DNA from: Azolla caroliniana
Taxonomy: Eukaryota > Plantae > Polypodiophyta
Assembly: GCA_043228905.1 (NCBI GenBank)
Contig: JBHGNT010000017.1
Span: 11,470,001 to 11,534,000, forward strand
Reading direction: 5' to 3'
Length of the DNA: 64,000 nucleotides
Under the pieces are notes generated by a model. It worked only from the letters and a program-made list of their open reading frames with translations, made no database searches and had not been told where the DNA came from. The translations under genes and the position numbers were made by a program. Each line of letters starts with the position of its first letter. Within the stretch, counting starts at the first letter, position 1. This document shows, one piece after another, positions 22,631-59,346 of the stretch.

Positions 22631-24489
22631 TAATTTTCATCACATTGGCTATCACTTAGCATCTCAGATTCGATGCTTGGGCATATACAGGATGCTATGC
22701 TTCCGAAAGAAGCTTGGGACAGTTTGGTAAAACTGTTTGCAGTGAATACAAAGGCAAGAAAGCTTCAGTTGAAGACTGAGCTAAATACCTTGGAAAAAGG
22801 TAAGATGTCAGTAAATGAGTATGCTCTGAAAATAAAGAGCATATGTGAATCACTTGCTTCTATTAATGTAAAGATAGAAGATGATGATAAGGTGGAAATA
22901 TGCTTAAGAGGCTTAGGACCTCAATACAAAAGTTTTAAAACATCTATTCTCACAAGGGATAATATCCCAAGTTTTACAGGTCTGGTTTCAATGCTTGTAG
23001 TGGAAGAAAGAAATCAGATGGATGATGTAAATAAAGGAAACCTTGAGAATGAGGGGCAAGCCCTCTATAATAGTGCTGGAAGAGCCCAAGGAAGAGGCCA
23101 TGGAAGATTTGGTTCAACTAGAACCAACAACAACAATCATCAAGGAAGAGGACAACAAGCTATTAGGGGAAGAAACAACATCAGAGGCAGGGGGAGCAAT
23201 CGAGATAGAGGTAAGCAAACCTATTTGAATGATGATGGCTATTGGTATTGTGGAAAACCAGGCCATACATAGGCTAAATGCTATAAAAAGAAAAATGATG
23301 AGAAAAGAGAGAAGAGACAGCAGAATAACTATGCCTCAACTAGTGAAGATTGTGATAAAGATGGTGCATTTGTGATGCAATATGAAACAACAGCAATGAC
23401 TGAATGCTCGCAGAAATGTAATGAAGATTTTATGTGGTATGTAGATTCGGGGGCATCTAATCATATGACTGGACATGCAAACTTGTTTGAAAGTTTAAGA
23501 GAACCATAGATTCCTGGTTATGTACAGATAGGTGATAATACTACTCACCAAATCGAGCATGTAGGAGATATCCCATTGTGGGAAGAAAAATGAAAAACAA
23601 AGTATATACGTTGAATGTAATGCATGTTCTAAACCTTGCTAAAAATCTGATTTCTGTTGGACAGATAGTACAGCAAGGAATGCAAGTCAAATTTAAGCAA
23701 AGTGGATGCTTTATAGAAAAAAATGGAAAGCTCATTGCTAAGGGAAAACGACAAGGAAGAATGTTTATCTTGGATGTAGATATATGCCTAGGAATATTAC
23801 AACCATGTTTGTAGAAGGAACTAGTGTAATCTCAGATGTGGAAATGTGGCATAAAAGAATTGGCCACATAAGTATGCAAACCCTGAAAAATATGTTGAGA
23901 AAAGATGCAGTGGCTGGACTGCCAAAATTGAAAGACTGTGAGATGGGAAAAATATGTGAAGCATGCCAATATGGAAAGTAAAATAGGTTGCCTTTCCCTC
24001 ATGAAAGACATGTAAGTAAAAATCTGTTAGAGTTGGTACATACGGATGTATGGGGACCAACAAAAAATGCATCTATTGGTGGCTGTAGATTTTATGTAAC
24101 ATTTATTGATGATTGCTCAAGGAAAACATGGGTGTACTTCATGAAAGAGAAAAGTGAATTGTTTGATTGTTTCCGTAAGTTTAAATGCATGGTAGAAAAG
24201 CAAGCTGGAACAAGAATAAAATGTCTAAGATTTGATGGAGGAGGAGAATATTTCTCCAATGAATTTTCTGATTTTCTATGCAATCAGGGAATAAGAAGAT
24301 GTTATACGTTTTAGGGTTAGGGTTAAGGACGATGACGATGATGAATGATAACTATGATGATTGGTAATGAAGATAGACATGGTGATGGAGAGTATGATGG
24401 TGAGAGAGATCATGTAGAGAAGCATTGCGGGGTGGGGGGTGGTGCCTAGAATGGCTCCACCCCCCTCCCAAGGATGTTCAACGTTAAGG

Positions 24490-24540
<51 letters not shown>

Positions 24541-27500
24541 AAAGAGAGATAGATAGAGAGAAAATGATTATTCCTTCATTCATTCCCCATAAGGGGTTAA
24601 ATAGTACAAGAGGGGGTAGATACAAAGGGGTGTAAGCCCCCTAGAGCATTCATACTGGACACTCACTCACACCTCCTCGTATCCATCCACATGCACACAT
24701 ATGTGCATGTGTTCACATACGTATCGACTCACAATTACATTTATGCCCCCTACACACACACAACAATCATCATGATAACATTTGACCCTCGCTCATCACA
24801 TTGACTCTCCGTACATCTCGTACGGGGTAACACAATATGGCACGCCCGTGGGAAAGTGCCTTGCACGTCGATCCCACATGCCTTGATGATGATATTTCTT
24901 TGACTGGAACTTCCATCGGTCCTTTCAACGATCGACTCCCTCGATCGGAATGCTTGACTCGAACATCTTTGTCGGTCAGCAAATCGTCCACGACACAAAC
25001 ATTCTCGTTCTGTCGGCTTACGAACTTCGTCATGGGTCCAAAATCATGTCATATGTATGTGTGTTCTTCCTTTGTTTTGAGTGTGTGTGAGTAGTCTTGG
25101 GGATTTTCAAAATTCTAGTGGTGCCCTCTTGTTTTTAAAATTTTATATTGTACCCTTATGTTTATGAAATCTGCTTGATAGCCCTCAAATGTTTTAAAAT
25201 TTCGCCGCATGCCCCTCTCTTCTCTTTTTCCCTCTCATTTGAGTTTCGTTTTTAGGTCGTTTTTTTTGTGTTTGTCTTCTTCTCTTTTGCGTTTCTCTGT
25301 TTTCTATTTCTTCCACTTCCTCCTCTTCTTCTTCTTCTTCATCTTCTTCATCTTTTCCTCTGTTTTTGCTTCTCGCATGCTTTCTTCTTCCTCATTCTTT
25401 TTCCTTCATTCTCCTGCTTCTTCTCTTCTGTTGTCGCCACTGCTATTGCTTCATCTCCTTCTGTTGCCACCCACGTTTCCATTGTCCAGTGCCATTTGTC
25501 ATCCGTCTCTTCGTTCATCCTGTCTCGTTGTTGCCGGCCATCGTCGTCACTATCTTTGTCTCCATCGTCGTTCTTCTTGGCCTTGTCCAGTCGTTTGTTT
25601 GGTCGACGTCTGGCGTCTCCATCACTTTCCTCTGTCTCTGTCGTCGTTTCTCTCCAAGTCCATCCGGCCTGTCCATAGGTTGTTGTCTCTGTCTCCAGCA
25701 CTGTCTGTTGTCCATGTCTGGCTGTCTCCGACTGTTCATTGGCTGGCCGTTGTTCAACCCATCTGGCCCTAGGTTCCACTTGTTGTCTATCGCCTTTTGG
25801 TTGTCGTTGCTCCGGCTTTTCTGGATGCTCTCCATCCATTTCGGCCGCTGTCGTGTTTGTCCATCTATGCCGTACGACCGTCTCTATTGCCTTTTAGGAT
25901 GGGAGTCGTCATTGTCATGTGTCTGTTCGGCCGTCTCTGTCTCTATCGCTTTGTCCATTGTTGTGTGTGTTTGTTTGGGCTCACTTTTTAGCGTCATCTC
26001 CGATATGGCCGTAGATTGTTCAGCCACTACCGTCGCTCCGGCCGGTATTCAGCCATTGTTTTGCCCTTTCGGCCCTTCTGGTCATTCGGTTGCTGTTTGA
26101 CCGCTTCCGGCCATCTCCATCGGTGTCTCTTTGTTCGTTTGGCCTTGTCCAACGGTCTCTTTCCACTGTTCGAACTTCGGTTTGGCCGTCGCTTTCCGGC
26201 CTCTCCGGCCTTTTCCGCGTATGTCCCAGCCGTTGTTAGGCCACCACTCTGTTGCGAACTCCATAACCGCCTCTGTTGGTTTCCGGCTCTGTTGTGGTTT
26301 CCTAGCTTCTGTCAGTGGCTTTCTGCAGCACGTCGTCTCGTTCGACTTCACTGTTTCCGGCTATGTCGTGTTGGTGTCTTTGTCTCTATTGACCGCCCGT
26401 TTTGTCTGGCCGTTTGTTTGATCCGGTCTGGTCCTTCATCTTTCCGGCTATGTCTGGCTGGCTGGTCGTGTCCTTCTGGGACTTTGTCTCCATCCCTATC
26501 CATCACTGTCGTGGTTTCCATCTCCGTCGGGTTTTTTTTTTTTTTTTTTGTCCCTCTCCATCACCGTCTCCGTTCAGCCGTTGGCAGTCTGGCCACCGCT
26601 TCCCGACCATTTCTTTTTGTCTTCGTCTTCTTCTCCAGCATTGTTCTGTCGTCCTCGTTCTTTGTGACTGTTATGCCGCCGTTCGACATCGTCACCATAT
26701 TCCGGCCATGCGTTTGGTCTGTCATTCGTCCCAATTGTCGTTTGGTGTCTTTGTGCATACCGGAAATCGATCCAGCCACTATCCAGCGGCTGCCGCTCTG
26801 CCGCTGCCGCTGTACGAACACCGCTCCATCCGATCACTATCTCTATCCGACGCGGTGGCTGCTGGTCGGCCACCACTCTAGCCATTGGTATGTGGCCACT
26901 ACCGTCCGATCGTCGTCCTGGCTCCATCACCGTTCCGACTGTTCGGCCCATTGCGGTCGTTGTTTGGCGGTTCTTTGTCGAGCCCATCTGGCCACTTCTG
27001 TTCCGGTGACGATCAGCCACTACGACCACTCTTTGGTCGCTCTCCGGCCTCTCCTATGTGATGTCGCTGGTCTAGCCATCGAGCTTTCTTAGTACGGCTC
27101 GTTCCAGTCGGTTTCGGTAGTCGATTCGGCTGTTGTCCAACTGCTCCCATCTTTGTTCATTTCCTGCACACACACATTGCTAGTTCTCGTACACTCGCAC
27201 ATCTGTATCGTCGTGTCTCATTTTGTGATTTACGCTAGCACATTGTGATCACCATTTGCCGCACATCGTCGATCCGATTTCTTGTACATTCCTTCACTGC
27301 ATCCCTTCATTGACTTCTTTGCGGACATCGTCATCGCATACCATGCTTCAACTTTGTCTTGCACTTTGCCACCATCATTTGTCGCTAACCACACACTCGC
27401 ACATCGTCATCGTTTCTAATCGCTTAGTCACTATGTCTTGCATCGACGTGTATCATCCTTTGAGTCCGTCTCCAAAGGGGGGTCGCCTTAGTGGTCGCCA

Positions 27501-27695
27501 AAAGGTGTTATATGTTTTAGGGTTAGGGTTAAGGACGATGATGATGATGAATGATAACTATGATGATTGGTAATGAAGATAGACATAGTGATGGAGAGTA
27601 TGATGGTGAGAGAGATCATGTAGAGAAGCATTGCGGGGTGGGGGGTGGTGCCTAGAATGGATCCACCCCCCTCCCAAGGATGTTCAACGTTAAGG

Positions 27696-27734
<39 letters not shown>

Positions 27735-30700
27735 AAAGAGAGATAGATAGAGAGAAAATGATTATTCCTTCATTCATTCCCCATAAGGGGTTAAATAGTA
27801 CAAGAGGGGGTAGATACAAAGGGGTGTAAGCCCCCTAGAGCATTCATACTGGACACTCACTCACACCTCCTCGTATCCATCCACATGCACACATATGTGC
27901 ATGTGTTCACATACGTATCGACTCACAATTACATTTATGCCCCCTACACACACACAACAATCATCATGATAACATTTGACCCTCGCTCATCACATTGACT
28001 CTCCGTACATCTCGTATGGGGTAACAGAAGACAGTTCACATGTAGATACACTCCACAGCAAAATGGAGTTGCTGAGAGGAAAAACAGAACCTTGGTGAAC
28101 ATAGCAAGAGCTTTGATGATGGAGAAAAACATGCCATTGTATTACTGGGTAGAAGCTGTAAATACAACAAATTACATTTTAAATAGATGTATAACATCGG
28201 GAGTACATGAAGTAACTCCTGAGGAGTGTTTCTATGGCAGGAAGCCTAGTTTAGAACACTTAAAAGTGTTTGGATGCCTTGTATATGTACATGTACATGA
28301 TGAAGTGAGAAGTAAGCTTGATCCGAAAGTTGAAAAATGTATTTTTGTTGGATATTCAGAAGAGCAAAAAGGGTATAGATGCTATAACCCGTTGACAAAA
28401 AAGATTGTGGTAAGTCGGGATGTAATATTTGATGAGTTGGCTAGCTTGTATAGCCCAAAACAGAATCTAGAAATTGATGAAGACAATGAGATTGAAGACA
28501 AGGATAAATCTGAAAATGTAAGTGATAGCCACAGAGATGGAAACAATGTTGGACAACAAAGTTCGACATCAACAGAATGCTCTGGATCATCAAAAAACTC
28601 AGTTGGTAAATCTGATTCAAATGCATGGAGTGGAAAACATGTAGGACATAAAAAATGTGATGATAAAAAGGGAAAACAGAAAATGCTAGAATATGAAATG
28701 TTGGATGATGGATCTAAAAACATGGAAGATGTAGATTCAGATAAATCATTGGATGATGAGCTTGGTATAGGAGCCGTAAAATCTCTGGTATGGAAAAAGC
28801 AATGAAGGATGCAAATAAGAAACTGAGAAGATCAGCTAGAGAGAAAAAGACTGTTGAAAGATTTGGCTATCAAACATATATGGCTATGCATTATGCATAA
28901 ATGTCTAAAGTGGTACAAATCCCTAATCCAAATAGTTTTGATGAAGCAAAATTTGATAAGAAATGGGTGAATGCAATGCAAGAAGAAATAGATGCATTGG
29001 CTGAAAACAGAACATGCGATTTGGTGAAGTTATTGAAAGGAAAAAATGTTGTAGGTTGCAAATGGGTCTACAAGACAAAGCATGATTCCAATGGAAATGT
29101 TAGTAGACATAAAGCAAGACTTGTGGCAAAGGGATATGCCCAGATGCATGTAATTGATTATGATGAAACATTTGCACCAGTTGCAAAGACGGCAACTTTG
29201 AGGACACTACTTGTTGTAGGTGCAGCCAGAAGATTGTTTTTGCATCATATGGATGTAAAAAATGCTTTTTTACATGGTAACTTAGAAGAAGAAGTATATA
29301 TGTGCCAACCACCAGGTTTTGAAGATAAGAAGCATCCAGAATATGTGTGTAAGTTGAAAAAGGCTCTTTATGGACTGAAACAAGCACCAAGAGCATGGCA
29401 CAGGGAACTTTCAGATTCTCTGAAAAAATTTGATTTCAAAATGTCAAAAGCTGATTCATCACTGTATGTAAAGAAGATGAATGATTGCATTGTTGTGATC
29501 CTGATATATGTTGATGATCTCATCATTGGAGGTGATTCCATGGATGAAATAAGTAAGCTAAAAAGAAATTTGGAAATGAAATTTCATATGAAAGATTTGG
29601 GAGATCTGAGATATTTTTTGGGTATTGAGATGATTAGATTTGAAAGTGGTATATATATGTTGCAAAAATAGTATGCAACAACAATGTTGAAGAAGTATGA
29701 TATGCTTGGATGCAAACCTATTGGAGTACCACTAGTAAGAACTGCAAATTGAGGGCTGATTTGGGAGCCAAAATAGATGATGTAAACATGTACAGGTCTA
29801 TGGTGGGCAACCTCATATATTTGACTATAACAAGACCTGATTTGAGTTATGCAGTTGGATTAGTCAGCCAGTTTATGCAACAGCCAACAAAGCCGCATTT
29901 GGACTGCATTAGAAGAATTCTGAGGTATGTAAAAGCTACTCAGAACTATGGACGGTTTTACAGGGCTGATTTGGACATAAAGCTGGAAGGATATACAGAC
30001 GCTGATTGGGCTGGAAGCCAAACTGACAGAAGATCCACAAGTGGATATATGTTTACATTAGGAAGTGCAGGAATTTCATGGAGTAGCAAGAAACAAGCTA
30101 CCGTTGCATTGTCAAGTACTGAAGTTGAGTATAGAGGAGCTGCATAGCTACTTGTGAAGAGGTGTGGATCAGAAGATTGCTTGCTGATTTGGGAGTATAT
30201 ATAGATGGTGTTGTCACAATCTGGTCTGACAATATGAGCAACATTCAACTTGCAAAAAACCTAGTGTTCCATGCAAGGACAAAGCACATTGAAGTACATG
30301 TATGTGATAACAAATCAACAGGTTGCTGATATCCTTACGAAGGGATTGAGCATAGAAAAACATACACAGTTTCGGAACATGATGGGAGTTGTAGACATTG
30401 ATATGATGGCTGGAAAGCATGATGGAAAAGAAGATTGAAGATAAACTCAAGAAAGGATAAGTTGAGCTTGAGGGGGAGTGTTGAGAAGCAAGCTCAACAA
30501 AGGTATGTGATGCTTATTGAGAAATAAGCTATAGTAGCTATTTAGCTACTAGTGAACATGAAGGTGAAACAACTATTTAGCTATGTAAAGATAATTAGCT
30601 ACTGATGACTATTTAGCTAGTGACATCTATTTAGCTACTGGCAGCTAATTAGCTGCATATTTAAGTAACTTATAACTTAGGTAAAAAGTAAGAGAGAGTA

Positions 30701-31850: not shown

Positions 31851-32253
31851 TAGTGCTGTTGTTGTCACCGTCTATTGCCGTCGCCGTCACCATCGTCTAC
31901 AGCCGTTGTTTGCTGTCGTCGTCGTCTGCTGCTGCTGTCGCCGTTGTATGATGACTGTTGCCGTCTGTTTTCGTCTGTTGCCACCGTCATTGTCGTCCTC
32001 ATCTATAGATGTTGGTTCTTGGCCGTTGCCGTCGTGGTCGCCGTCACTATCATGGCATGTTTCTTCTCTTTCTTTTCTTGACGTTGTTGAGTGCCGTTTT
32101 TCTTGGCACGTCCGTGGGTGGGTTCTTTTGGCGTGCTCATCGCGTGCTACATCATCGTGTGCTACAAAATGCTGATGTGACTGTGACATACACACAAACT
32201 CGGCTAAGTCTCGAACCCATTTATTTTATCTTTTTTTTCTTATTGACACCACA

Positions 32254-43662: not shown

Positions 43663-43833
43663 CACAAAAGACTCTTTCTTTCACAAAACAACAATACAAC
43701 AGCCAACCTTACAAAAAGGTTACAAGGTCACTATATATAGTGACTGACTTAGGGCAATTACCCTTTATGCTAATTACATAAATGGCCAAAACGGGATAGT
43801 GTGAATACGTCCATTATACACATGTATTCGACA
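38361..43833 (-). mobile_element. Intact, very recent copia element (Tnt1/Tork-like)
   Basis: LTRs 38361-38654 and 43548-43833 appear identical except for (GA)n length. TSD TATTG, iMet PBS at 43534-43545, PPT GGGGGAG, and an uninterrupted ORF. Confidence 0.97.
38848..42861 (-). CDS. Complete copia gag-pol polyprotein (1337 aa from the ATG)
   Basis: Contains [75 protein letters not shown] and NVADGMTK. Confidence 0.97.
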   Translation of the reverse strand: MASTSGSSEMSLRKFDGSNFNFWKEQMQDYLIVKGQIDPIENEEPPEGYKPIEWQKLDRIVRATIRMHLSESVYFTVQSCTTAFELWKTLSDTYEKKVAATKMFLIRRLYNLRMKESDSVQAHLNEYESISSQISSQGTAIEDELRAMILMSSLPSSWETFVTTVCNASTTAVKYSEVTSAILTEAARRKSFAKDSTDDAYVVQGSTDRSNIRGRDSSRPPNNQRRRSQSRDNRICNYCKKPGHIKADCRALKNKNNKKSGRHEEINYVSFSADVLPDDPNILSIENPVGSEVLLTTEESSTWLLDSGASFHVTPHRSQFRQYTIRHSDSVRVGNSQHCDIIGIGTVELNLAGGSTLVLHNVRHVPELSRPLISVGQLDEDGIRAGFSSGGWTLHRGNLLLARGPKIHSLYPLHVTLREGNLFLVDIPVSSLWHRRLGHLSKAGITHLSRAGYIPKLSFSDHQFCEHCQYGKQVAASHPTSAPRETRPLDLVHSDVCGPMPHQSLGGASYFVSFIDDSTRKVWAYPIRTKDRVFSIFTDWLAMVENQTDRKLKCLRTDNGGEFKSEEFVKFCRQRGIRRELTAPHSPEQNGIAERMNRTIQERTVSMLQHSGLSDGFWAEALLTAVHIINMSPSRPLGLQIPQELWIGSKPNYDKLRIFGCEAYALIPKDDRRKLAPRSRKCIFLGYGSDGEMGYRLWDPERRQIVRSSDVVFNESAMNPSVEKPIEVRRVTFSDVPTLQEGPALNTRSASRVAEPYSTDSDNSDSAQQNNSLSDHLTTIPDATSPIIPRRSERLSQPPERYSPGIFFTDAGEPTSYEEASTSVDSATWHLAMESEMHSIRANKTWDLVELPRNRRALPCKWVYRLKETSDSTTPKYKARLVAKGFRQEYGVDFDEIFSPVVKMTTLRFLLGVVAADNLELIQLDVKIAFLHGDLEEEIYMEQPKGFVATGQEHLVCRLRKSLYGLKQAPRQWYKKFDDFIQSIGFSKSDEDHCLFTNTAQDGSPIFLIIYVDDMLISGRHAGELADLVRQLRLKFAMKDLGPARHILGMKISRHRDKRHLFLSQTDYIGRVLERFNMQSAKSASTPLPMNLRLSQRDCPTSGPEGEDMKSVPYAPAVGSLMYLMVATRPDISHAVGVVSRFMHNPGRSHWNAVKHVFRYLAGTKDHGILFGPNRTSGVVGYTDSDFAGCIDSRKSTTGYCFKFGNGAISWKSKLQECTATSTTEAEYVAASDAAKEALWLGRLAHTFRQVDHDSAPVVYSDSQGAVALSKNPVHHNASKHIDVRYHFVRDCVISGKIGLEKISTTDNVADGMTKCLSADRFRSLRHQMGVTTNQSV

Positions 43834-45792
43834 TATTGGAGTTTCGTGGAAGAAATGAATGAGGTAGCACCAAAGCCTGGACACAAGGACTTCCTGGTGT
43901 AGGAGCAAGGAGCGAGCTGAGTATTATACTGCCTCGCGTCCTGTGTGCATGATCAGATGTTCGGCTACATCAGGGATGCAAAGACGCCGAAGGAAGCCTG
44001 GGATAACCTGTGTAAGATTTTCGCCGCAAGTACCACAACCCGTAAGTTGTAGCTCCGGTAAGAGCTGAACAACATCTGACAAAAAGATATGTCGGTTACG
44101 GACTACACCACCAAAATAAAGGAGATTTGTGATGCTCTTGGGTCCATCAACATGACGGTGGATGAAGACGAAATGGTACAAATCTGCCTTGGTGGTCTAG
44201 CGCAAAGGTACGGGCCAATCCGGACAGCGATCTGCACCCGGGAGAAACCACCGAACTTCTTCGACTTGCAATCGATGCTGATGGTCGAAGAAAACCATGC
44301 GAGTGGGTCCAAGACCATTCAATCGGACAACCGGATGTTGTACACGGAGGCGGATAGGCCCCGTGGGCGTAGGGGATGACGTGGGTCGGCATGCACTGGA
44401 GGTGGTCGGCAAGAGCAAGGAAGAAGGCATAGAGAACGGGCCGACAACAGTTCTGGGACTTCCACAAGCAGGGGGAGTCAAGGCGGCGCCGGAGGCCGGC
44501 AAGACAAATTCGCCATGGAATGTTGGTACTGTGGCAAAAAGGGCCACAAAGAAAGCGAGTGCTAGAAGAAGCGCGCCGATTTGGACAGATCTGGATCCGG
44601 TAAAACAGGTCGGGAGAACCGGCAAAGCTCGCACTACACACAAGGATCGAAAGGATCTGGAACCGGGAAGACCGGTAAGGTGCCAACCTTGGTGATGAAG
44701 CACGAGGCAAATTCGATGAAGAAGACCACTTCCAAATCGGAGGAAGTATGGTATGTTGATTCCGGTGCGTCGAATCACATGACGAGCCACAAAGAGTGGA
44801 ACCGGAACAACTGGAACAACCGGGAGTTGTCGAAACCGGAGACGACACTCCTCACCCAATCGTGCATATTGGAGAAGTCCCTTTGAGCCACGTCGGACAG
44901 AGGGGGAAGCTGATGAACGTATTACACGTTCCGACTATCACGAAGAACCTAGTGTCGTTGCCTCTTAGGAACACGGTCCGTGGTCAGTCCTTCGACCTAG
45001 ACCCCAAGGTGGGTGTGGAACAACGAACAGAGCTTAATCGCACTACGTAAGGAGAGAACCTCTGTGATTCCTCTGTGTGTAAGGGGAGACGGCTACAATT
45101 GACTCCTTATCACAGGTTGCGCTTACGTACTACTACGATTACGTATCCGAGACACAGACACTGAATTAGTCGTAGCTATACACAGAAACTCAGAGAAGAT
45201 AGTATTCTATTATTAGGCGTTCTTTTACATTTCCCAAAATTTACACGCACCTCCTTAAGAGGTTTTTTTTCCCTTTATATATGCAGGGTCTAATTAGCCA
45301 TTCACGCTTCCCCGCGTGAACCGTTACATATGTTACGCTTTATATAGTTTCTTATTCCTACGCTTTTGGCCGTCGGTTACTATTCCGGCAGACAACACCT
45401 GGCAGGCCTGTGGGACAGTGCCTTTGCATGTCGGACCCATCCCGTTAATCTTCTTCCAAAATGCCCCGGATGTTCGGCTTTGTTGTGGTGTCCTCGGCCG
45501 GAGTTGATGTAGGGCCCGTAGGTGCATTGTGGTGTGACTCCTCTGCTTGGTCGGCCTGGTTTCTCCCGGAGTCGCCTTCGCCGTGTGCGGGTGGTCCGGG
45601 TACGGTGGGCTCTTCTTGAGTTCGTGGGCTGGGCTCCGCCGGTAGCGTGATTGCAATCGGCTGCTGCTCCGCCTCTATTGTTACGTCCTCCGCGGTGTTG
45701 GCCGTTTTTGTGTGTCCCTGGGAGTGGGGCGGGGATTCCGCCGGGTCCGCACTATTTTCCGCGTTTTCTGAAGATGGTGTGGGCTGGAACTT

Positions 45793-48506
45793 TTATTGGT
45801 TAATGGTTTCGCTGTTTGGTCTTGTGGGGAACTCCGCTCGTTTGTCCCCGCTATTCTCCCCCGTTGTCCTCACTGGTGATCGGACCTGAGGTTCCTCTTC
45901 TTCGGCTGTGACCGGAATTGGTGTCTCGCTGGGTTCCTCGTTTGTGTGCGTGTTGCCGGTTTGTGTGATATGGTGAAATAGCTCCTCCTGACTTTCACCA
46001 AAATCATCTAGGAGTCGTGCGAGTTCTTCGGAGTGTTGGTCTGCTAACGTGCGATAGTCTTGCGCTAGGTCCTCCCGTAAAACTGTTTCTTTTTCATCCT
46101 GACGGACTCCACGTCGCCAAATGCCGTCACTTCCTTTGTGATATAAATACCCTTCGACCAGGCAGAAGTGACGGCTTCGGACAGCTAGTTGTTTCTTCTC
46201 GTCTATTCGTAATTGTGGTGGAGGTAGTCCTGTAGTAAAAAAGTACGTCATTTCCATAAGCCATCGATCCGGAAAGGTGGATTCCGTTTTTTCTGCAAAT
46301 GTCGCTACTCGCCAGATGTGGGCGTTCGGAAAATCGTCGTCGTCTTTCTGTATTGTTTCTCCATTCTCAAGTTTGCTCAAAAAATCCGCCACTGCGTGTT
46401 GCGTCCCTGGTCGGTGCTGAATTACGAACTCGAATTCCTGGAGTAGCAGCATCCACCGCGCCAATTTCCCTATTAGGGCTTGTTTCTCTACCAAATACAA
46501 TAATGCCAAATGATCCACGTGGAACGTGAATTTCCGTCCTAGTAAATAATGTCGGAATTTATTGATGCTATAGATCATCCCTAGCGCCTCCCGCTCTGTT
46601 GTGGAATAGTTACGCTCTGCTGCTGATAATTTATGACTTGCGTAGTATACTCGCCTGTACCAGTTTGGTTCGGTGAGTTGCATTAGCGCGCTTCCTATTG
46701 CTGTGTTCGAGGCGTCGACGAACACGTGAAATGGTTTCGCCCAAACTGGAGGTTGTACTACGGGGGCCTGTGTGAGCATTATCTTAAGTGCCTCATAGGC
46801 CTTATCCTCTGTTGCAGTCCATTGGAAAGGAGTCCGATGTACGGCAGCGTGTAGTGGCGTGGCGAAGTCCGCCAAATACCGTATCATCCGACTATGCCAT
46901 CGTATTTGGCCCAAAAATTGGCTAAATGCTTTGGGTCGACCGCTATTCCTTCCTTGCTGACTATGTGGCCTAGGAGAGTCCCGCTGGTCACACCGAAGGC
47001 ACATTATGCGGGATTCAGGCTTTAGCGTGCGGTGCGGCAGCGTTCCAGGCAGAGACGTAAGTGCGAGAAATGGTCTTTTGTTCGCCCATATACTGCAAAA
47101 TCGTCTAAAAAGACTTGCATGAACGCCGGAAAGTATTCCCCAAAGATCTCTGTAATCGTTTGTTGGAATGTTGCCGGTGCTGTCTTTAGCCCGAACATCA
47201 TGACGACCGCCACATATACTCCCCAGTCTGTGACAAATGCCGTCTTCTCCTGGTCGTCGGGGTGCATGCGTACTTGGTTATAAACACTGAAGCCATCTAA
47301 GAAACTGTACATCTCATGACCTGCAACGGTGTCCAACACGCTATCAGTGAAGGGTAAGGGAAATGCGTCCGTAATGCTTACGGCGTTTAATTTCCGGTAA
47401 TCCACGCATACCCGTATTTTGCCGTTTTTCTTTGGGACAACCACTATCGGGCTAAGCCATGTCGCTTGTTTTACTGGCTGTATGAACCCAGTCCTCAGGA
47501 GCTTGTCAATTTCTTCTTTCACGCGGGTCGCGTAATTGGGGTTCATGCGGTAGCGACGCTGCTGGACAGGTTTCGCGTCCGTTGCTAAATTGATCTTATG
47601 CTGATAGAACTTGGGATCTAACCCCTTCATGTCCTCATGAGCCCACACGAACACATCTTTATATTCCGTGAGTAGTGCGATCATTGTGGTTCTCTGGTCC
47701 GGCCTCAATTCCTTTGCTATGGAGAGGAACCGGGGTTCCGATCCCGTACCCACATTCACTTCGTCGAGAGCGGAAGCGGTGACCCATCGTGAAATCTCCA
47801 TCTCCCTTTCGAACGCCGCCCGTGCTCTGCTGAGTTCCAATATGGACTCTAGGTTTGGTTCGTACGGCTCTTCGCTTGGAACAATGGACGTAGTATATTC
47901 TGCCACAGTTGCGATGACATCTATCTCGAACAGCGGAATAATCCGAGGATGTTCGTCAAGGTACGCTTCCAATTCGGCATCCTCCACCCCAGCCAACATA
48001 TTGATGTCTTCCGCATATAACGGTGTTATCCCCTTAGGTTGGGGCGTGTTGCCTTCTGTAGGAACACGAACCTTGATGCATCCCTGCAGGAAATTGATAC
48101 ACTCGTGTTGCCAGCTTTGCTTGATATTTGCTGTCTGAAGCCATGGTTTGCCCAGAAGCACTGGGTACGCTCCTAGCGCGTCCAAAGTGAGGACGACCGC
48201 CGATATGTCGAAGCGGTGTCCGCCCACGATGATGCCTATTTTGCGAATTAGTCCCAACGGCTGCACTGATCGGGTATCTGCCATGCGAAGCCAGAATGGG
48301 CATGCCTCCCATTCGGAAATGCCCAACTGTTCGCAAGTTTTCGCGCTAATCACATTGATGCCTGAGCCGCCGTCGATTACACATCCAGGGACTTCCTGTC
48401 CGTGCAATATTACTGTAATGGCCGGGTTGTGTTGATCTACCACTGGTGGTCCCTCGCTAACGTCAGTCAGGTTTGTGGCAACGCTCGCCCCGGTCATGCC
48501 CGCCAC
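45793..48506 (-). pseudogene. Gypsy protease-RT-RNase H with a frameshift and a deleted integrase core
   Basis: Motifs VIDGGSGIN, WLSPIVVVPKKNGKIRVCVDYRKLN, FLDGFSVYNQ, FLDDFAV, VFVDASN and NYSTTEREALG. Homology stops after ...ETVLRE (about 46075), where the frame joins unrelated 3' sequence. Confidence 0.9.
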
Positions 48507-49237
48507 CTATGCTTCCATGGTCTAGCGGAAACGTGGAACTAGCTGTAGCAGTTTTTCCATAGTTAGCGTGATTTCACAGCCTGTTAACACCTGCCAAATG
48601 GGGTCCGGCCCCGGTTTTTCGTTCTCTGTTCGCTTCATTGCATTCGCGGATTCCTGCCTCATACGTTTCGTATTGGTCGCGTTTGCTTTTTCCACCCAGG
48701 CTTGGGCTTGTCGTCGTACCTCGTCCTGCACAACCCAATCCGCCGTTTTCGTTTGCTGGCGTGTCGTGACTGTTGCACCTCCGCCATAATCGTGTTGACG
48801 GCGGGCCCCTTTCCCTTGCGTGCTAGGCATTGTGTGGCATAATGTCCGGGTTGCTGACAAATAAAACAGTGGATGGTTGATTCTCCCTTCTCAGCCCCAG
48901 GTGGAGTGTGCCGTTCTCCGGGCGCTACTTGCTCTTCGCGGTCCGGCCTTGTTTGTCGGGACGTACGCGATGGCTGCTATTGATTCCGTCGTTGTTCCTA
49001 GTGCCGCTCATCCCCCGAGCTTTCGTCGTAACGCCGATCATCCCTATATTGTCGAGGCTTCCCTCGATAGCCATTGATGCTGCCCCGTTTGTTCATTAGG
49101 CATTGATGTTCGTATCGCCGACCTCCTTTGGCATAACTCGGATGTCCATGATAATCCTCGTCCTCCGGGTCCTCCTCCTCGGACTCGTTGTGATTCCGGC
49201 GATTCTGGTTGTACCTGTCCTCCCGCGGGTTGCGATC

Positions 49238-52200
49238 TGTAGAAAGTAGCGTGCGGAAGCAAGTTTGAAGACCGAACAGAAGGAAGAACGCTCAGGTTTA
49301 ATGGAGAGCTTGAGCTTACACAGTATACGCGAGAGAGACAAAGAGAGAGTGAGAGAGAAAAAACACGAAAACTATATTCAACACTCAATTCACCACTCTA
49401 TACTCTATACATATGCGTATACCACTCTATACACTTTATACAAGTCCTAGAAGGACTGACCGAAGTACTGATAGTACTTCAATACTCATTAAGAGCTCCT
49501 ACACTAACTCCCAAATATATTCCTCATGGAATATCTTTCCTAACGGCCTCCCGATTTACGCACTCGGCCTAACCGATCGGTCCCAACCGATCCGGTCCTC
49601 AGCTTCTTCAGCCGATCCGGCCGATGTTGAGCTTGTCTCTCAACACTCCCCTTCAAGCTCAACTTGAGGCTCTTCGGGATCTTCACAACACAGGTTCCTC
49701 CTGGCTTCATGCCTCGCTCGCGCTCCTTGACCTGTTCGACTCCACGCGCTTCGACTCCACGCGCTTCGACCCTTCCGGTCGGCTTGTCTGCTCATGTGGC
49801 CCTTATCAGCTCTTCTGTGGTTGCGGTGTCGACACTTCTTCTGCTGCCTTTTCTTCCACTTGGGCCTCGGTTGATTCAACGTGTCTGAATCAAACATCCG
49901 AACCGACTCGGCTACCTCCGATCGGTCTTCGCTCTCGTCCGTGTTGGCTGTCTCCAACTCGTCTTCGGTCTTCTCGCCCTCGATGGCATCATCTCCCCCA
50001 TGCGTGGTTGGCTTCGGCTCTCTCCTTCGGCTGCTCCCCTTCTGTCCGCTTCCGGACTTTTCCGCGGGTCCGCCCTCAGCTTCTTCAGCCGATCCAAAGT
50101 CGAACTCGACAACCGACTCGGTGTCGCCGCAGACTCCGCTCCTTTCCTGCTGCCTTGCTTGGTCGTTCGGGACTGTTCTCCCCCTCATGTTTGGCACGTT
50201 GAGGTGACGCAATCCGAGCGCACCTGAGAATTGCCGCAACTTGTCCAGACCAAGAGGCTTGGTGAAGATGTCGGCAATTTGCCGATCCGTCGGCACGTAT
50301 TGAAGTTCGACTTCACCTGAAAGGACACGCTCACGGACGAAATGGTAGTGCACCTCAACGTGCTTGGTCCATGCGTGAAAAATGGGGTTCTTCGCGAGCT
50401 GGATGCTGCTGATGTTGTCGCAGTAGATCGTCGTCGGATCTGACACCTCCGCTTGCAGGTCCTTAAGTAGCCGCTTCAACCATATGGCTTCGCACGCTGC
50501 GACAGCCACTCCTCGGTACTCAGCTTCAGTGCTCGACAGTGCAACTATCGGCTGCTTCTTACTGCTCCACGCGATCGCGGCATTCCCGAGGGAGAATGCG
50601 TATCCGGATGTGGATCGACGATCGGCGGCATTGCCATCCCAATCAGCATCAGTGTAGCCGACTAACTGCGCGGCTGCACCGGTCTGATATAGCAGTCCCC
50701 GGTCCTTAGTGCCGTTGACATACCGAAGTATGTGTCGCGCACACTGAAGGTGCTCCTCGGTAGGTCGCGCCATGAACTGACTGATCACCCCGACTGGATA
50801 ACTGAGGTCGGGTCGGGTGATGGTCAAGTATATGAGGCTTCCAACAATTTGTCGGAACCTCGTCGGGTCGCATACCTTTCCCGTATCGGGACGAAGCTTG
50901 ACGGTTCTGTCCAGAGGAGTCGAGACGGACTTACAGTCGGCCATCCCAAATTTGAAGAGCATACTCAGCACGTAATGACGTTGGCTGATTTCACCTAGGT
51001 TGGCGTCGGTGATGACCAAGTCATCAACATATAGTAAAATACTAACCGGTCTGAGTCGACCTTTCCGGATGAATAAGGAGGAGTTCGATTTTGACGTGAT
51101 GAAGCCCATCTGATGCAGTTGTTGCATGATCTTCACATTCTAGGCATGCGGGGCTTGCTTCAGTCCGTAAAGGGACTTCTTCAATCGGCATATTGCCGAG
51201 GAGTTCATTCCAGAGTGAAATCCGGGGGGCTGTACCATGTACACCTGTTCCTCAAGGTCACCTTGCAGGAACGCATTCTTTACATCCATCTGATGTAAGT
51301 GCCACCCCTTCACCGCAGCTATTGCGAGCAAAACATGGACGGTCGTCATTTTCGCGACCGGCGCAAACGTCTCATCGTAGTCGATGCTGTGTTTCTGCGC
51401 GTAGCCCTTTGCCACTAGCCGAGCCTTGTACCGGTTGACCGAGCCATCGGTGTTGTACTTGACCTTGTACACCCACCTACACACGATCAGTTTTACCCCT
51501 GTTGGTGCGTCAACTAGGTCCCAGGTCTCGTTCTTCGCCAATGCGTGCATCTCTTCCTCCATCGCGGCACGCCAATTCACGTCTTTAGCCGCTTCTGCAT
51601 AGCTCTCCGGCTCACGCACTTCCACTACACGGGTCATGTACGCATAATGATGCGCCATGTACTCGTTGTATCCGAACCGCAAAACAGGATTCTTCTGGCG
51701 GGTAGATCGGCGTAATCTCACATTAGCCGATGTCGAGGCCTTCTCGGTAGACGCGCTCTTCATCTTTAAAGAACCGTCACCGGTTCCCTCGGAGTCGGAC
51801 TCGCATCGGTTTGACTCGTTCTTATCCGTGCCGGAATCCGACGCCTTCTTCTTCCCTTTCTCTTTGCGCGTAAGCCGTCTCCTCGGCTTCCTGCGCGGGG
51901 AATGCACGACCGAGTCTCCACTACTCGCCGGCTCTTCATCGAACTGATTGTACCGACTCAATCGTCCAATCGGTCCACTTAAGCGGAGTGAAATCAGACT
52001 CTCTTCGCGGGTCTCGATTTCGGGCTCATCCGGAGGCATCTTGGCCTCGCTGACCTCATCGTCAGAACACGGATTGGAGTCGGGGTTCGGCGTCGAGGGC
52101 TGGTACCAGGACGTGGACTCGTCAACCACAACGTCGCGGCTAACACGCGCTTGTTTGGTGCGAGGGTTATAGCAGTTATAACCCTTTTGCTCGTCCGAGG

Positions 52201-54845
52201 AACCGACCAAGATGCATTTCTCGGCCTTTGCGTCCAGCTTCCTCCTTTTCTCCTTCGGTACATGCACATACGCAATGCTATCGAACACCCTCAAGTGTCG
52301 AAAGTTCGGCTTCGTTCCGAAATATAGCTCGTGCGCCGACACTTTGTCTCTGATCCGGTTTTGGATGTATACCGCGATCCTTACCGCCTCGGCCCAGTAG
52401 AACTTGGGCAAACTCTTCTCCTCCAGCATTGCCCGTGCCGCTTCCACAACTGACCGATTCTTCCTCTCGGCCACGCCGTTCTGCTCCGGCGTGTATCTAC
52501 AACTGAATTCGCGGCGAATTCCCATTTGTTGTAGGTAACCGTTGAATTGACCAGAAAAGTACTCTTTCCCGCCATTGGACCGCAGGCACTTGATCTTTCG
52601 TCCCGTTTCCGTTTCCACGAACCCTTTGAGGTCCCGGAAACAGTCGAAGACTTCGCTCTTGCTCTCAATGAGGTAGATCCACGTGTGCCGTGTGTGGTTG
52701 TCAATGAAGGAGATGAAATATTGGCTCCCGCCAAGACTAACGTTTTGTGCCGGCCCCCACACATCGGAGTGTATAAGGTCGAGCTTATTCCGGCTCCGGT
52801 TTCACTCGTTGGGGAAAGGAAGTCCGTTTTGCTTCCTGAGCTGGCAAGCTTCACAAATTTGTGCCTTTTGGCCACTAAATTTGGGCAATCCGAATAGTAC
52901 CTGTTTCGTTTGCAGATCTTGAAGCCGCTGGGAGTTGACGTGGCCTATCCGCTTATGCCACAAGTCGATGTCCGACTTGGTTTTTCTTCCCTTCGTGAAC
53001 ATTGCGGTGCCGCCGTCAGTGGAGTCGAGGATGAACATCCTCCCATCTCTGCGCCCTTGCGCAATCACATGGCCTTCTTCCTCAATGAAGCACCCGAGGT
53101 GTGTAAACCGAACCTCCATCCTTTGGTCGACGATCTGTCCAACCGAGACCAAGTTTTTCGTGATTGTCGGAACGTGCAACACGTTCATGAGTTTCCCTTT
53201 CTGCCCGACATGGCTAAGGGGAACTTCTTCGACATTCGTGATTGGATGCGGAGTGTCGTCTCCAGTTGCGACTACTCCAGGTTGTATCAGTTTTTCAAGG
53301 TACGAGAACCACTGCTTATGGCTCGTCATGTGGTTTGACGCGCCGGAGTCTACGTACCACACCTCGTCCGATCTCGGGGTGCTCTGTTTCATTGAGTTTG
53401 CTTCGTGTCTCGTCACGAAGGCAGACCCTTCTTCGGCTCTCTCGGAGTCTTCGGCGTAGTGCGATCGCTGCCGATTTCCCTTGTCGGTATGTCTGGAGCC
53501 GTTTCCGGAACCGGTTCTCTCCGAATCGGCGTGCTTCTTCCAGCACTCACTTTCCCTGTGGCCTTTCTTGCCACAGTACCAGCACTCCGCGATGGCATTC
53601 CCTTGCCGGTTCTCATCGCTTCGACTCCCCCTGTTTCCGGAGGGTCCGGAGTTGCTGTCGGCATCACTTCGGTGCCTTCTTCCTTGATCTCGTTGGCTGC
53701 CTCCATTGCGCGCCGACTCGCCTCGTCCTCCACGTCCATGGGGCCTTTCTCCCTCCGTGTACAACATTCTGCTGTCGGTGTGCGTGCTTGTAGATGCACC
53801 CGCGTGGTTCTCCTCTACCAGGAGCATTGACTGTAAGTCGAAAAAGGACGACGTATTCTCCCGGGTACACACAGCCGTTCGGAACACTCCGAACTTTGAC
53901 GCCAAACCTCTGAGACAGATCTGGACCATCTCGCTCTCCTCGATGTTCATCTCTATGGAGGCGAGGGAGTCGCAGATATCCTTGATCTTCGAGGTATAGT
54001 TCGCCACCGACAAGTCGCGTTGTCGTAGGTTGCTCAACTCCTTTCGGAGCTGAAGCTTCCTAGCTATGGTGCTCGCGACGAAAATCTTCTTCTGATTTTC
54101 CCACGCACCCTTCGGCGTCTTTGCATCCCGAACATAGCTCAATAGCTGTTCGCCCACACACGACGCGAAGCAGTATAGTACCCTGCTCGCCGATTGCTCC
54201 CACGACGGGAAGTCTCTGTGTGTCGATTCGGGTTCCGCGTCATTAGCTCCTTCGACATAACTCCAGTAGCCTTGCATGAGCAGGTACTGGTGCATCTTTT
54301 ACGACCAAGACGCGTAGTTGGTTTTGTCGAGCTTCTCTGTTGGAAGTGAGCTCGCCATGCCTCTATCCATCGTTCTTCTTGTTCTTCTTCGTCAAGCTGT
54401 GTCGGCTGCAGAGAGGTTCTCAACCTTCGTTCTCTGATACCATGTAGAAAGTAGCGTGCGGAAGCAAGTATGAAGACCGAACAGAAGGAAGAACGCTCAG
54501 GTTTAATGAAGAGCTTGAGCTTACTCAGTATACGCAGGAGAGACAGAGAGACAGAGAGTGAGAGAGAAAAAACACGAAAACTATATTCAACACTCAATTC
54601 ACCACTCTATACATATGCGTGTTCAATGAACACTTTTATACAAGTCCTAGAAGGACTGACCGAAGTACTGACAGTACTTCAATACTCATTAAGAGCTCCT
54701 ACACTAACTCCCAAATATATTCCTCACGGAATATCTTTCCTAACGGCCTCCCGGTTTACGCACTCGGCCTAACCGATCGGTCCCAACAGATCCGGTCCTC
54801 AGCTTCTTAAGCCGATCCGGCCGATTTTGAGCTTGTCTCTCAACA
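49238..54845 (-). mobile_element. Full-length, degenerate copia element (family A) nested in gypsy gag
   Basis: LTRs 49238-49645 and 54443-54845 with TSD CGATC and an iMet PBS at about 54432-54442. ORFs 52802-54295, 51140-52762 and 49640-51136. Confidence 0.96.
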
Positions 54846-57800
54846 CGATCCTTATACCGGGGTCGGTCTTCTCTCTCCTCCTTTACTCCACCCAATGTGG
54901 TTGCCGTTGTGTGTCCATGCTGTGGACCGCGGGTGTGGCTCTGTTTAACATATTGTACTCGCATTGGTCGACTGTGTGAACCTTCCAGTGGCAGATTGGG
55001 CAGTGGATTCGCATATTGCACTCCAACGCAGAATGCCCCGAGTTCAAGCAAATCGTGCACTGGATTGCCTGACGAAATTGGCGTTCCTCATCTTGAGGTA
55101 ACGCTTGTCATAAGGATGACATCGAAAACTTCTCCTCCTCGTCATCCAACTCGAGCTGTAACGCTCGTTCAATCACCATATCCACCGTTTCCCCTTTCAC
55201 ACTATTGCTGTTGAGAGTTGCCCTGATGGGCCGACGTAACGCTGCCAGAAATGTCTCCCGTGCCTCCTCCTCCGCAGAGCTTCGATCCAGTTTCCGTTGG
55301 AAATTTTGGAACCGTAAGTTGAAGTCTACTATTGTCTCGGTCGGTAGTTGCTTAATTGTATAAAACTGCCCCAGAATCTCGCGTTGTGGAACCCTCTGGT
55401 GGAAAAAACGCAAGAAGGCGGACTGGAGTTGATCGAAGGTTGTTATGGCCGGTAAATCCATTTGTGAATGCCAGAACGCCGCACGCCCATCTAATGTTAT
55501 TCCGAACTCCGTCATTTTCGACTGGTGTGCCACCGTCTCGGAAAGGTTCTGTGCCATGTGGTTCGCATTCCAAACATTCAAGAACATGCGAATATGAGTT
55601 ACGGCGTGGGTTTTGCTGTTAAAGCGGAGGTAGGCAAAGGCCATCGTGGGAGCTACGGCGGATCGGATAAGGTCACCGGGAGGCTATGGTAAGCGTGGTC
55701 CCCTCGCCTCGTCGAGGTATTTGGGGAGCAAGGAATCCTCTTTGCACTTCTGGCAGGTATTACTGGGGTCGCTGATGCGCGGCTTTTGCCGAGCGCGTTC
55801 TTCTGCTTGGCGTGTGACGGACCTTGTTATTGGCCGGTCTTGTCTTGTTGGTTCTCTGAGTCGTCTGCGGCTAAACATCCATTCGTTGTTTCTCGTCTGT
55901 GAGGAAACACAGATCACCAAGCGTGCCAAAAGTGTTGCCTCTTAGGAACACGGTCCGTGATCAGTCCTTCGACGTAGACCCCAAGGTGGGTGTGGAACAA
56001 CGAACAAAGCTTAATCGTACTACGTAAGGAGAGAACCTATGTGATTCATCAAGGAAGAAGGCCAAATCATTGCGCAAGGGCGCAAAGACGGGAGGACGCT
56101 CATCCTCAACACCAATGATGTCGGCACTGCGTTGTTCGCCAAAGGACAGAAGATTGAATTGGATATTGATCTCTGGCACAAGCGGATCAGCCACGTCAAT
56201 TACCGGCGGCTTCAAGACTTGCAAACGAAACAAGTTGTTTTCGGTTTGCTGAAGTTTAGTGGCCGGAAGGCACATGTATATGAAGCCTGCCAACTCGGGA
56301 AGCAACACTGGCTTCCATTCCCCACCGAACGAAACCGTAGCCGTAACAAGCTCGACCTTATTCATTCAGATGTATGGGGACCGGCACAGAACGTGAGTCT
56401 TGGCGGGAGTCGATATTTCGTCTCCTTCATCGACGACTAAAGCTGGCACACATGGATGTACCTCATTGAGTAGAAGAGTGAAGTCTTCAAGTGTTTCTGG
56501 AACCTGCAAAGATTGGTTGAACGGGAAACGGAGAGGAAGATCAAGTGCCTGTGGTCGGATGGAGGAAAAGAATATTTTTCCGGCCAATTCAACAGTTATC
56601 TGTAGCAAACAGGAATTCGGCGAGAGTTTAGCCGCAGATACACACCGGAATAGAACGGTGTAGCCGAGAGGAAGAACCAGTCGCTTATCGACGCGGCAAG
56701 GGCGATGCTGGAGGAGAAGAGCATGCCCAAATTCTACTGGGCGAAGGCGGTTTGGACGACCGTCTATATCCAAAACCGGATCAGTGATAAGGTGTCCACG
56801 CATGAGCTGTATTTCGGGCGCTAGCCGAATTTGCGACACCTTCGGATATTCGGCAACATAGCATATGTGCATGTGCCGGATGAGAAGCGGAGGAAGTTGG
56901 ATGCAAAGTCGGACAAATGGATCCTAGTTGGTTACTCACATGAGCAAAAGGGGTATAAATGTTATAACCCCCGGACGAAGCAGGTATGAGTTAGCCGGGA
57001 TGTGGAGTTTCATGAGACGACATCATGGTATGCCTTACCGGCTCCGACTTCCGACCCCGACCCAATACCGGAGGATGAGGCTAGTGAGCCTGAACCGGTC
57101 CAGTTAGAAGATGAAGAAGTCGGCACTCTAGAAGAGAGTCCGATCTCATTTCGGTTAAGTGGACCGAATGAGTGGCTGAGTCGAGATGACTAGTCAGATG
57201 AGGAACCAGCAAGTAGTGGAGACACTGTCGTGCTCTCCCCGCTCAAGGAACTGAGGAGACGGTTCACGCACAAGGAGAAGGGGAAGAAGAAGATGTCGGA
57301 ATACGAAACCGGTAACGCTGAGTTGGATCGGTGCGAATCCGACTCCGGAAAAGATGAAGGCGGATCTTCGGGAACGAAGTCCGACCTGGCCAAGATGGGC
57401 CCCAAACCGGGTAATACCAAGTTACACCGGTCTTCCCTCCAGAAGAACCCCGTGATGCAGTACGGGTACAATGAGTACATGGCGTATCACTATGCGTACA
57501 TGACCAATGTGGCGGAAGTGCGTGAGCCGGAGAGCTACGCAAAAGCGGCAAAGGACACACATTGGCGTGCCGCTATGGAGGAAGAGATGCGGGCACTTGA
57601 TGCCAACAACACATGGGACCTAGTTGACCCTCCCCGACGCTGTAAACCGATCGGATGTAAGTGGGTGTACAAGATAAAGTACAATGCCGACGGTTTAGTT
57701 AACTGGTACAAGGCCCGGCTAGTGGCAAAGGGATACGCGCAGACCCACGGAATTGACTACGACGAGACCTTCGCTTCGGTAGCAAAGATGACGACGGTTC

Positions 57801-59346
57801 GTGTGGTGCTAGCAGTTGCTGCGGCAAGGGGGTGGCATGTTCACAAAATGGACGTGAAGAATGCATTTCTTCAAGGCGAACTTGAAGAAGACGTCTTTAT
57901 GACCCAACGCCCCGGTTTTCAGTCGGTGGTATGCCGGTTGAAGAAGTCACTTTATGGCCTAAAGCAAGGCCCTCGAGCTTGGAATGCGAAGATTACGCAC
58001 CGGTTGCGTAAGATGGGGTTTGTGGCTTCCAATTCCGACTCTTTGTTGTTTATCCGGCAAGGTCTGGACGGTCCGGTTTGCATCTTGCTGTATGTTGATG
58101 ATCTAGTCATCACCGGACCCGGACTCGATGAAATCAGCCGAGTCAAGTCCCAACTGTCGGACGCATTTGAGATGAAGGACCTGGGGGACGTTCACTATTT
58201 CCTTGGAATCGAGGTGATCCGAACCCTCGAAGGCATATTGCTCTCACAAAGACACTATGTGTTGAATATGTTGTACAAATTCGGCATGACAGAATGCCGA
58301 CCTGTCTCAGCACCCATGGATCGGAACCAGAAGCTTTGTCCCAACTCCGGACCGGCTTGCGATGAGAAACGGTTCCGCCAAGAACCCCGTATTCCATGCT
58401 CGCACAAAGCACATAGAAGTGCACAACCACTTCGTGCATGAGTGTGTCTTGAGTGATGAAGTCGAACTTCAGTATGTTCATACAGATCGACAAGTTACCG
58501 ACATCTTCACCAAACTGCTTGGATCGGACAAGTTGCAACACTTCACCGAAATGCTTGGTGTTTAGCATCTCGACGTGCCACACTTGAGGGGAGAACGGGC
58601 AAAGGCAAACAGACTGCTGATTGCGTCGGTGAGGGAAGAACAGACAAAGAGAGAGACAAGAAGAAGAAAGGAGCTGAGTCGACAAAGGAAGTTGACACAT
58701 CCGAACAAGTCGGAACAAGCGGCAGCGGAGGCAGAGTCAAGAAGGATAGAGCCGACCAGAAGAAGAAGGGCAAGACCCGGACATTGTCCGACGTGGTGAA
58801 GGGCTTGGAACCAGAAGACGAATCGGGAGCGACTGATTCGGACAAGAGCTGGAACGAATCGGAGACAATCGATTCGGTTCAATAGACAGATTCGGAAGAA
58901 CTGGATCAATTCAAGGGCAAGAGGACCAGAAGGCAACGAAAATCGACGCCAACATGAAGGAATCGGCAAATCGGCAAGAGCCGAAGTCACAACAGCGAGG
59001 GAGCTGAATTGGGTTTGTTGAGTAGACAAGCGGATCGAGGAGGTTAAGGTGCGTAGGAACAAAAGGGTCGCGGCAAACGGGATGGGATGGGACCGGACGA
59101 GGAGCGTGAGCGAGGCGGAGTGACGCCAGAAGGAGCCAGGTGGAAGGACCGGCTACCATGGAGACTGACACTACGATCTGACCTCAAGTTGAGCTTGAGG
59201 GGGAGTGTTGAGCGGCAAGCTCAACCGGATCTGGATCGACTGAATAAGCTTGAGCTAGATCGGCATCCGGAAGGATGAGCCGGACCGGTGACCCGGTGAG
59301 CAAGTGAGCCAGTGAGCTGGGGGGCCGGTTAGCCGGATCCATCAGT

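Follow-up and report, generated by a model that had tools for sequence, protein, structure and literature searches.

In the available text of two accounts, plus-strand priming from a purine tract (PPT) is taken to be a shared property of retroviruses and LTR retrotransposons, and the known variation in priming concerns the primer of the minus strand (PMC5371799; bioRxiv 10.1101/2022.12.06.519325). Ty3 and HIV-1, as covered in the accessible part of PMC5371799, exemplify this arrangement with an RNase H-resistant PPT. The clade described here resembles these canonical systems in its TG...CA LTRs, its 5' tRNA PBS, its gag-PR-RT-RH-INT order, and a short spacer before U3. Unlike them, it has a cassette in the place of the PPT, and the minus-strand DNA of this cassette is complementary to a tRNA.

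Other described systems share single features with the clade. The bipartite PBS of Ty3 and the extended contacts of Ty1 also involve tRNA-related sequence near the 3' end, with acceptor and T arms in two blocks; however, in Ty3 it is the RNA whose 3' segment can pair with the tRNA, and this segment acts in minus-strand priming and leaves the PPT in place, whereas the RNA of the present clade has the tRNA's own sequence (PMC5371799, same part). Self-priming Tf1/sushi elements and Tcn1 likewise rely on an alternative primer encoded by the element, but in the available text this concerns the minus strand and the PPT is kept, unlike in the clade (PMC6317226; bioRxiv 10.1101/2022.12.06.519325). Among the lineages described in the accessible part of PMC6317226, Athila, Tat/Ogre/Retand, Phygy, and Selgy share with the clade the lack of a chromodomain, an extra 3' ORF, and a 5-bp duplication (seen here in element B). 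The clade has a tRNA-Arg PBS, as do Ogre, TatIII, and part of Retand, unlike Phygy and Selgy, which use Trp or Ala, and Athila, which uses Asp or Asn. The "zero" Tat branches Z1/Z2 also lack aRH, and neither their PBS nor their PPT is mentioned in the available text of PMC13468544.

As judged from the sequences compared below, a tRNA-end site without a PPT is a real, conserved, and clade-wide trait, and a new route of plus-strand priming is probable.

Element A, element B, and their surroundings

The window, that is, the whole 64,000-nucleotide stretch of Azolla caroliniana DNA that was analyzed, is a stack of plant retroelements plus one PPR gene, and its named protein relatives come from one fern, liverworts, and one conifer, which makes a non-seed plant the likely host. 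The PPR gene, at 9570-12143, is intact and has an E motif. Element A, a decayed non-chromovirus Ty3/gypsy copy, occupies 56050-44956 of the minus strand and is flanked by the halves of a host copia element (43833-44957 and 56042-58362). Its features, together with those of element B, are collected in Table 1.

Table 1. Positions in the window of the features of elements A and B
Feature	Position	Strand	Remarks
tRNA-Arg(UCU) 3'-end-like 17-mer, element A	45400..45416	-	ends in CCA, at PPT position
Spacer from CCA to 3' LTR, element A	45398..45399	-	GG, 2 nt; then TGTTG of LTR at 45397
Inner 4-bp hairpin, element A	45417..45430	-	45429-45426 pairs with 45421-45418; between tRNA positions 58 and 59
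Segment like tRNA positions 49-58, element A	45431..45440	-	T-stem 5' strand and T loop; can pair with 45414-45410
3' LTR, element A	44956..45397	-	442 bp; TATA-like boxes on minus strand
Broken pol, element A	45793..49237	-	protease, RT, RNase H, integrase zinc finger
Nested Ty1/copia in element A	49238..54846	-	outside the family; ordinary PPT
gag region, element A	54847..55880	-	Pfam, tblastn of intact relatives
5' PBS, element A	55915..55928	-	14 nt complementary to tRNA-Arg(UCU), two G-U pairs; 4 nt inside 5' LTR remnant
5' LTR remnant (U5 end), element A	55933..56050	-	rest lost with ~50 bp of host copia
Element B, non-autonomous relative	24300..28026	-	LTRs 24300-24832 and 27506-28026, 97% identical
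Cassette, element B	24838..24878	-	17-mer at 24854-24838, 5 nt inside 3' LTR; no PPT
5' PBS, element B	27491..27500	-	10 nt complementary to another tRNA, Arg(UCG)

A sequence-only reading of the window had used gag and pol to put element A on the minus strand and had located its PBS; Pfam searches, and tblastn with intact relatives as queries, agree with this orientation, and the PBS was found where it had been placed. The same searches recover the domain order gag-PR-RT-RH-INT, with the integrase core of element A deleted near 46100 and the remainder fused to the tail of an extra ORF that is whole in L005. The 5' LTR remnant is 95% identical to the 3' LTR over 117 nt. The LTRs are direct repeats of the TG...CA type, with the outer base of the 3' LTR altered, and the target site duplication has gone through deletion.

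Element B was found by a motif scan of the window. Its 3' LTR starts at 24832, and a perfect 5-bp target duplication flanks the element on both sides; two LTRs and this duplication fix the position of the site relative to the LTR. Pfam gave no match in the one ORF scanned from its internal region, and the ends of its LTRs carry short telomere-like CCCTAA repeats plus a CT microsatellite.

At 60876-64000, inverted terminal repeats of ~644 bp (96%) enclose a gag-like ORF (61540-62661); this element sits in a second family-A gag fragment (59349-60813) and is possibly an inverted-LTR accident or an inversion. An LTR fragment at 3226-3572 resembles the PPT-bearing outgroup family L037/L040.

A conserved tRNA-end cassette before the 3' LTR

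The sequence-only reading had noted both that a PPT is missing before the 3' LTR and that a motif like the tRNA-Arg(UCU) 3' end is present, and both observations are borne out, the first by purine counts and the second by comparison with Arabidopsis tRNA fragments. In element A, no purine tract adjoins the 3' LTR: the last 15 nt hold 8 purines, and the longest run in the last 25 nt is 3. The 17-mer corresponds to tRNA positions 59-76 minus one C and is identical at 15 of 17 positions to a tRNA whose 3' end and T arm were taken from the Arabidopsis fragments (PMC11962134 supplementary file 5) and may not be those of the host.

Variation within the element A family was read from contigs of four runs (at most three samples; 2,366-3,561 contigs per run), which show the family to be high copy. 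Positions 45405 and 45429 carry letters private to the window, from which 88-92% of contig depth differs in all four runs; the majority letter at 45405 matches the tRNA, and that at 45429 restores a pair of the hairpin stem. Among the best 40 of 151 differences listed, 45405 is the sole position in the 17-mer. The PBS letters of element A are those of the family majority, with 55920 deviating in only 5-11% in the contigs.

Because the 5' LTR of element A is cut down, its own LTR pair cannot fix the edge at 45397. The boundary is backed instead by at least 19 contigs, listed for run X2 among the four runs, that run on past 45397 into unrelated sequence (agreement 0.38), by element B, and by two relatives with both LTRs, L033 and L082. 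We also considered that the left LTR and the site might form the 5' end of an oppositely oriented element. This idea was rejected: the LTR copies are direct repeats, and relatives show site, LTR, and PBS in one contig with pol upstream.

Relatives were gathered by integrase alignment, which provided the best 80 of at least 511 confirmed metagenome loci, plus 8 loci in prokaryote bins. Most of these contigs stop short of the 3' LTR. Where the start of a clade LTR is visible, the site is present in 8 of 10 cases (A, B, L005, L014, L007, L050, L033, and L082, of which L005 and L014 are near-copies), and integrase identity among site-bearing relatives goes down as far as 49%. CCA is followed by a spacer of 2 nt in seven of the eight and of 5 nt in element B, and in none of the eight does the longest purine run in the last 25 nt differ from 3, compared with 8 in L037. 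In the two misses, L045 and L023/L025 (counted once), the LTR directly abuts integrase DNA or unrelated DNA; an extra ORF, a PBS behind the LTR, and a PPT are all missing, and both cases look rearranged. The motif, whose conservation was at issue, is thus kept in the family and in the clade, and as far as these loci represent it, the PPT-less tRNA-end site is a clade trait and not the accident of one copy.

Individual relatives show how far the site can vary. L082 is full length, with an integrase 61% identical to the query, LTRs 93% identical, and a target duplication matching at 3 of 5 positions; it has an ungapped 15-nt site 2 nt inside the LTR and a PBS of the Arg(ACG) type. At position 70 the L082 site reads T, a letter shared with one Arabidopsis isodecoder of Arg(UCU). 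L033, at 49%, also has an ungapped site, with a degenerate PBS resembling Arg(ACG). One tRNA base is absent from 6 of the 8 sites, and L050 and L033, both decayed copies, read CTA for CCA. Across the clade, the 5' PBSs switch among Arg(UCU), Arg(UCG), and Arg(ACG) while the 3' site stays Arg(UCU).

In a quick integrase tree (52 rows, calculated without L082), a branch with SH-aLRT 88 divides the five included site-bearing loci from four loci with another PBS type, which we take to be Asp-type. Of these outgroups, L037 and L041 show the start of their 3' LTR, and a purine tract is present there in each. Three copias in the window carry ordinary PPTs.

Chance was assessed with the 16-mer of element B, which at up to 3 mismatches matches the window 3 times versus 0.29 expected. 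One of these matches is the pattern's own source, and another, at 32104-32119, is off any LTR edge and was for that reason dropped as a further site; the weight of the evidence is in positional conservation, not in the number of 16-mer matches. Other candidates were also set aside. A pattern match in the viral contig L081 is not evidence, as ARAGORN sees no tRNA there, and relatives sought in viral contigs were not found. L039 offered a CCA-TG candidate without tRNA likeness and without a mapped LTR. Matches at 2220 in L025 and at 5526 in L007 turned out to be ordinary 5' PBSs seen from the opposite strand.

The conserved cassette spans ~45 nt and consists of tRNA positions 49-58, an insertion of ~14 nt, and positions 59-76. 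Among A, B, L005, L007, and L050, this 45-nt block is 71-84% identical, compared with 44-58% for the LTRs and 38-58% for the upstream 45-nt blocks of the same five elements. The m1A58 of tRNA stops RT, at the 58/59 break, and a break at this place fits both an origin by copying of a tRNA and a design that loops around the modified base. No Rfam family matched at 45300-45600, and ARAGORN found no tRNA within the window or in the 80 loci.

The inner hairpin, which has no counterpart in the tRNA, shows compensatory changes in 2 of its 4 pairs (5 cells), and in family A its loop positions 45423 and 45425 vary. For a structure drawn from the same 7 rows on which it was scored, the covariation score of the whole was 0.265, which 0 of 500 shuffles reached, while 50 of 500 had at least as many covarying pairs. 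The outer tRNA-like stem shows no compensatory change in the 6 elements that have it, the single double change being in L033, which is without the block. Variation also extends to the hairpin itself: L082 has an unrelated 7-bp hairpin at the place of the inner one, and in L033 the hairpin block is absent. To the question of whether conservation follows tRNA complementarity or hairpin covariation, the answer is divided: the tRNA-like stem is fixed, and an inner, non-tRNA hairpin covaries. The hairpin that the sequence-only reading had drawn (GGCA/TGCC, CTGT/ACAG) did not survive, resting as it does on the private letter at 45405, and is not a conserved fold.

Several observations concern other parts of these elements. 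The spacers between the 5' LTR and the PBS are long and variable in the clade, at 2-7 nt (55929-55932 in the window, and relatives), which would imply that the overhang processed by integrase exceeds the usual 2 nt. An extra forward ORF of 936-1170 aa follows integrase and precedes the cassette (L005:1542-4403, L007:1381-4890, and L014:916-3723); these ORFs are mutually homologous and match no Pfam family above the curated cut-off. L082 lies in a 79-kb contig that is filed in a bacterial MAG though it is of plant type, likely a binning error.

Candidate routes of plus-strand priming

We propose that host tRNA-Arg(UCU), annealed to minus-strand DNA, probably primes the plus strand in this clade. 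Because the element RNA has the tRNA's own sequence, only the minus-strand DNA can bind the tRNA, and the site, by its orientation and its 2-5 nt spacer, is arranged like one from which a primer would be extended into U3. In the proposed course of events, tRNA-Arg at the 5' PBS would start the minus strand as usual, and after strand transfer RT would copy the cassette and RNase H would remove the RNA. In the fold predicted for the minus-strand DNA, the 10-12 nt that can pair with the acceptor end are free beside the hairpin. To this toehold tRNA-Arg(UCU) would bind, and it may swap T-stem strands with the DNA, while the inner hairpin would loop out at the 58/59 junction. RT would then extend the CCA end across the 2-5 nt spacer into U3, after which RNase H would remove the tRNA and integrase would trim the spacer.

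Covariation in the non-tRNA hairpin, combined with a fixed tRNA-like stem, points to an outside partner and would be expected where a real tRNA pairs with that stem. Predicted minus-strand DNA folds are alike in 4 of 5 cassettes, with the 10-12 nt complementary to the acceptor end largely free. Priming by a second tRNA is further supported by the retention of the site even in element B, which is non-autonomous and retains little else, and by sense-strand G-to-A changes at tRNA positions 67-68 (in A, L005, L014, and L082), which would leave G-T pairs with the tRNA. Such changes are, however, also expected from methylation decay of the minus strand. Against the proposal stand as well the CTA of L050 and L033, which puts a mismatch next to the primer end, and the tRNA base missing from 6 of the 8 sites. 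The modeling counts against it too: fold energies are ordinary (z of -1.1 to 0.1), the window copy folds differently from the others, L033 is without the hairpin, and the shuffles reached the observed number of covarying pairs in 50 of 500 cases.

In the RT, the thumb motif of the clade is G-[QK]-[IVL]-[RK]-W-H-x-R, compared with G-x-x-x-Y-Y-R-R-F in L037, L041, and most others, and when aligned to Ty3 RT (4OL8), the change falls on N297, Y298, and R300. According to the accessible text of PMC5371799 section 3.2, these residues of Ty3 contact primer and template. The catalytic motifs of RNase H are intact in the relatives. Since the thumb change coincides with the clade once, at one origin, it is a correlation only and not evidence of co-evolution. 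The motif lies at ~46900 in the window, and a similar one in protein P0081 of Adiantum nelumboides suggests that the clade may occur in that species.

The alternative that survives best, although we consider it rather unlikely, makes the element's own RNA the primer. The tRNA-like segment would resist RNase H as an atypical PPT and would be cut after CCA, in the way that RT cuts a tRNA primer from DNA, with a hairpin of the DNA possibly stacking on the short hybrid. What counts against this model is that RNA of mixed sequence does not normally survive RNase H and is a poor primer. The model also leaves unexplained why identity to one tRNA extends up to the T arm at 49-61% integrase identity, and why the tRNA-like stem is fixed and the inner hairpin covaries. 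Nevertheless, the site has the position and orientation of a PPT, no second tRNA is required, and the missing base and the CTA copies are accommodated. Moreover, the residues at which the clade thumb differs affect RNase H activity in Ty3, and cleavage of the Ty3 PPT depends on hybrid geometry, as stated in the available part of PMC5371799.

It is improbable that the tRNA-like sequence is instead the relic of an old template switch, with the real PPT being an upstream or central purine run, e.g., 45435-45457. Element A does have a purine-rich patch (12/15) that ends 42 nt before the LTR. RT stalls on tRNA at position 58/59, and the break there fits an origin by copying of a tRNA. However, the distance from the LTR to the best purine window ranges over 23-101 nt, with no shared place among the elements, and element B, without a nearby purine window, has yet inserted with a perfect target duplication. 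The cassette is, in addition, far more conserved than its flanks, and it covaries.

Still less probable is that the cassette pairs in the RNA with the element's own 5' PBS, for circularization, dimerization, or self-priming, and that the plus strand starts at an unrecognized site. The predicted duplexes are strong in A, L014, L007, and L082 (-19.8 to -29.9 kcal/mol) but weak in B, L050, and L033 (-9.2 to -13.4 kcal/mol), where the PBS changed and the site did not. The site also matches the tRNA beyond any part that could pair with a PBS, and no alternative PPT is conserved in the purine windows before the 3' LTR. Pairing with the own PBS, which the sequence-only reading had offered as an alternative, therefore does not hold as the general role: the PBSs of B and L050 match another tRNA and form weak duplexes with the site, and the 3' site stays Arg(UCU) while the PBS switches.

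Very improbable, finally, is a role as tRNA-like RNA for a host factor (RNase P/Z, CCA enzyme, or synthetase) or for packaging, with only an indirect part in priming, for although a T-stem-like hairpin is followed by an acceptor-like strand and CCA, RNA folds show no conserved 5' acceptor-stem partner, Rfam gave no match, and cleavage at CCA ahead of reverse transcription would separate U3-R from the rest of the genomic RNA.

Placement of the clade and what it means

No chromodomain was seen in L001, L082, P0122, or P0125, and the quick integrase tree groups the clade apart from the chromoviruses. The aRH domain that marks Tat in the REXdb sense (TatI-III, Ogre, and Retand) is absent, in that a Pfam search of the polyproteins and the extra ORFs at E 0.01 yielded no further RNase H family. 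For Athila the mark is a PBS for tRNA-Asp/Asn (72% Asp and 12% Asn in the accessible part of PMC6317226 Additional file 5), and the clade PBSs are of Arg types. The clade could belong to an aRH-less basal branch, a comparison made by descriptions only, from the available text of PMC13468544. PPT loss goes unmentioned for Athila, Tat, Phygy, Selgy, and Z1/Z2 in the accessible parts of PMC6317226 and PMC13468544, and a literature search that covered few subscription journals, and PMC11963269 in part, found no description of a PPT-less, tRNA-site-bearing lineage.

On balance, it seems slightly more likely than not that a whole plant LTR lineage has abandoned the PPT and primes both strands with host tRNAs, the second on minus-strand DNA by means of a toehold plus hairpin and a T-arm strand swap, and with an RT thumb remodelled at residues that contact primer and template. 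A high-copy, successful lineage that does without a PPT would be an exception to the rule of PPT priming, and this would hold whether the primer is a second tRNA or the element's own RNA. Both ends of such an element resemble a 5' end, and annotation software that relies on a PPT would therefore overlook it or give it the wrong orientation. The clade would also be a natural system for studying primer selection and removal by RT and RNase H, in which the tRNA and the element RNA differ by one base plus a hairpin, so that the two models can be sharply distinguished.
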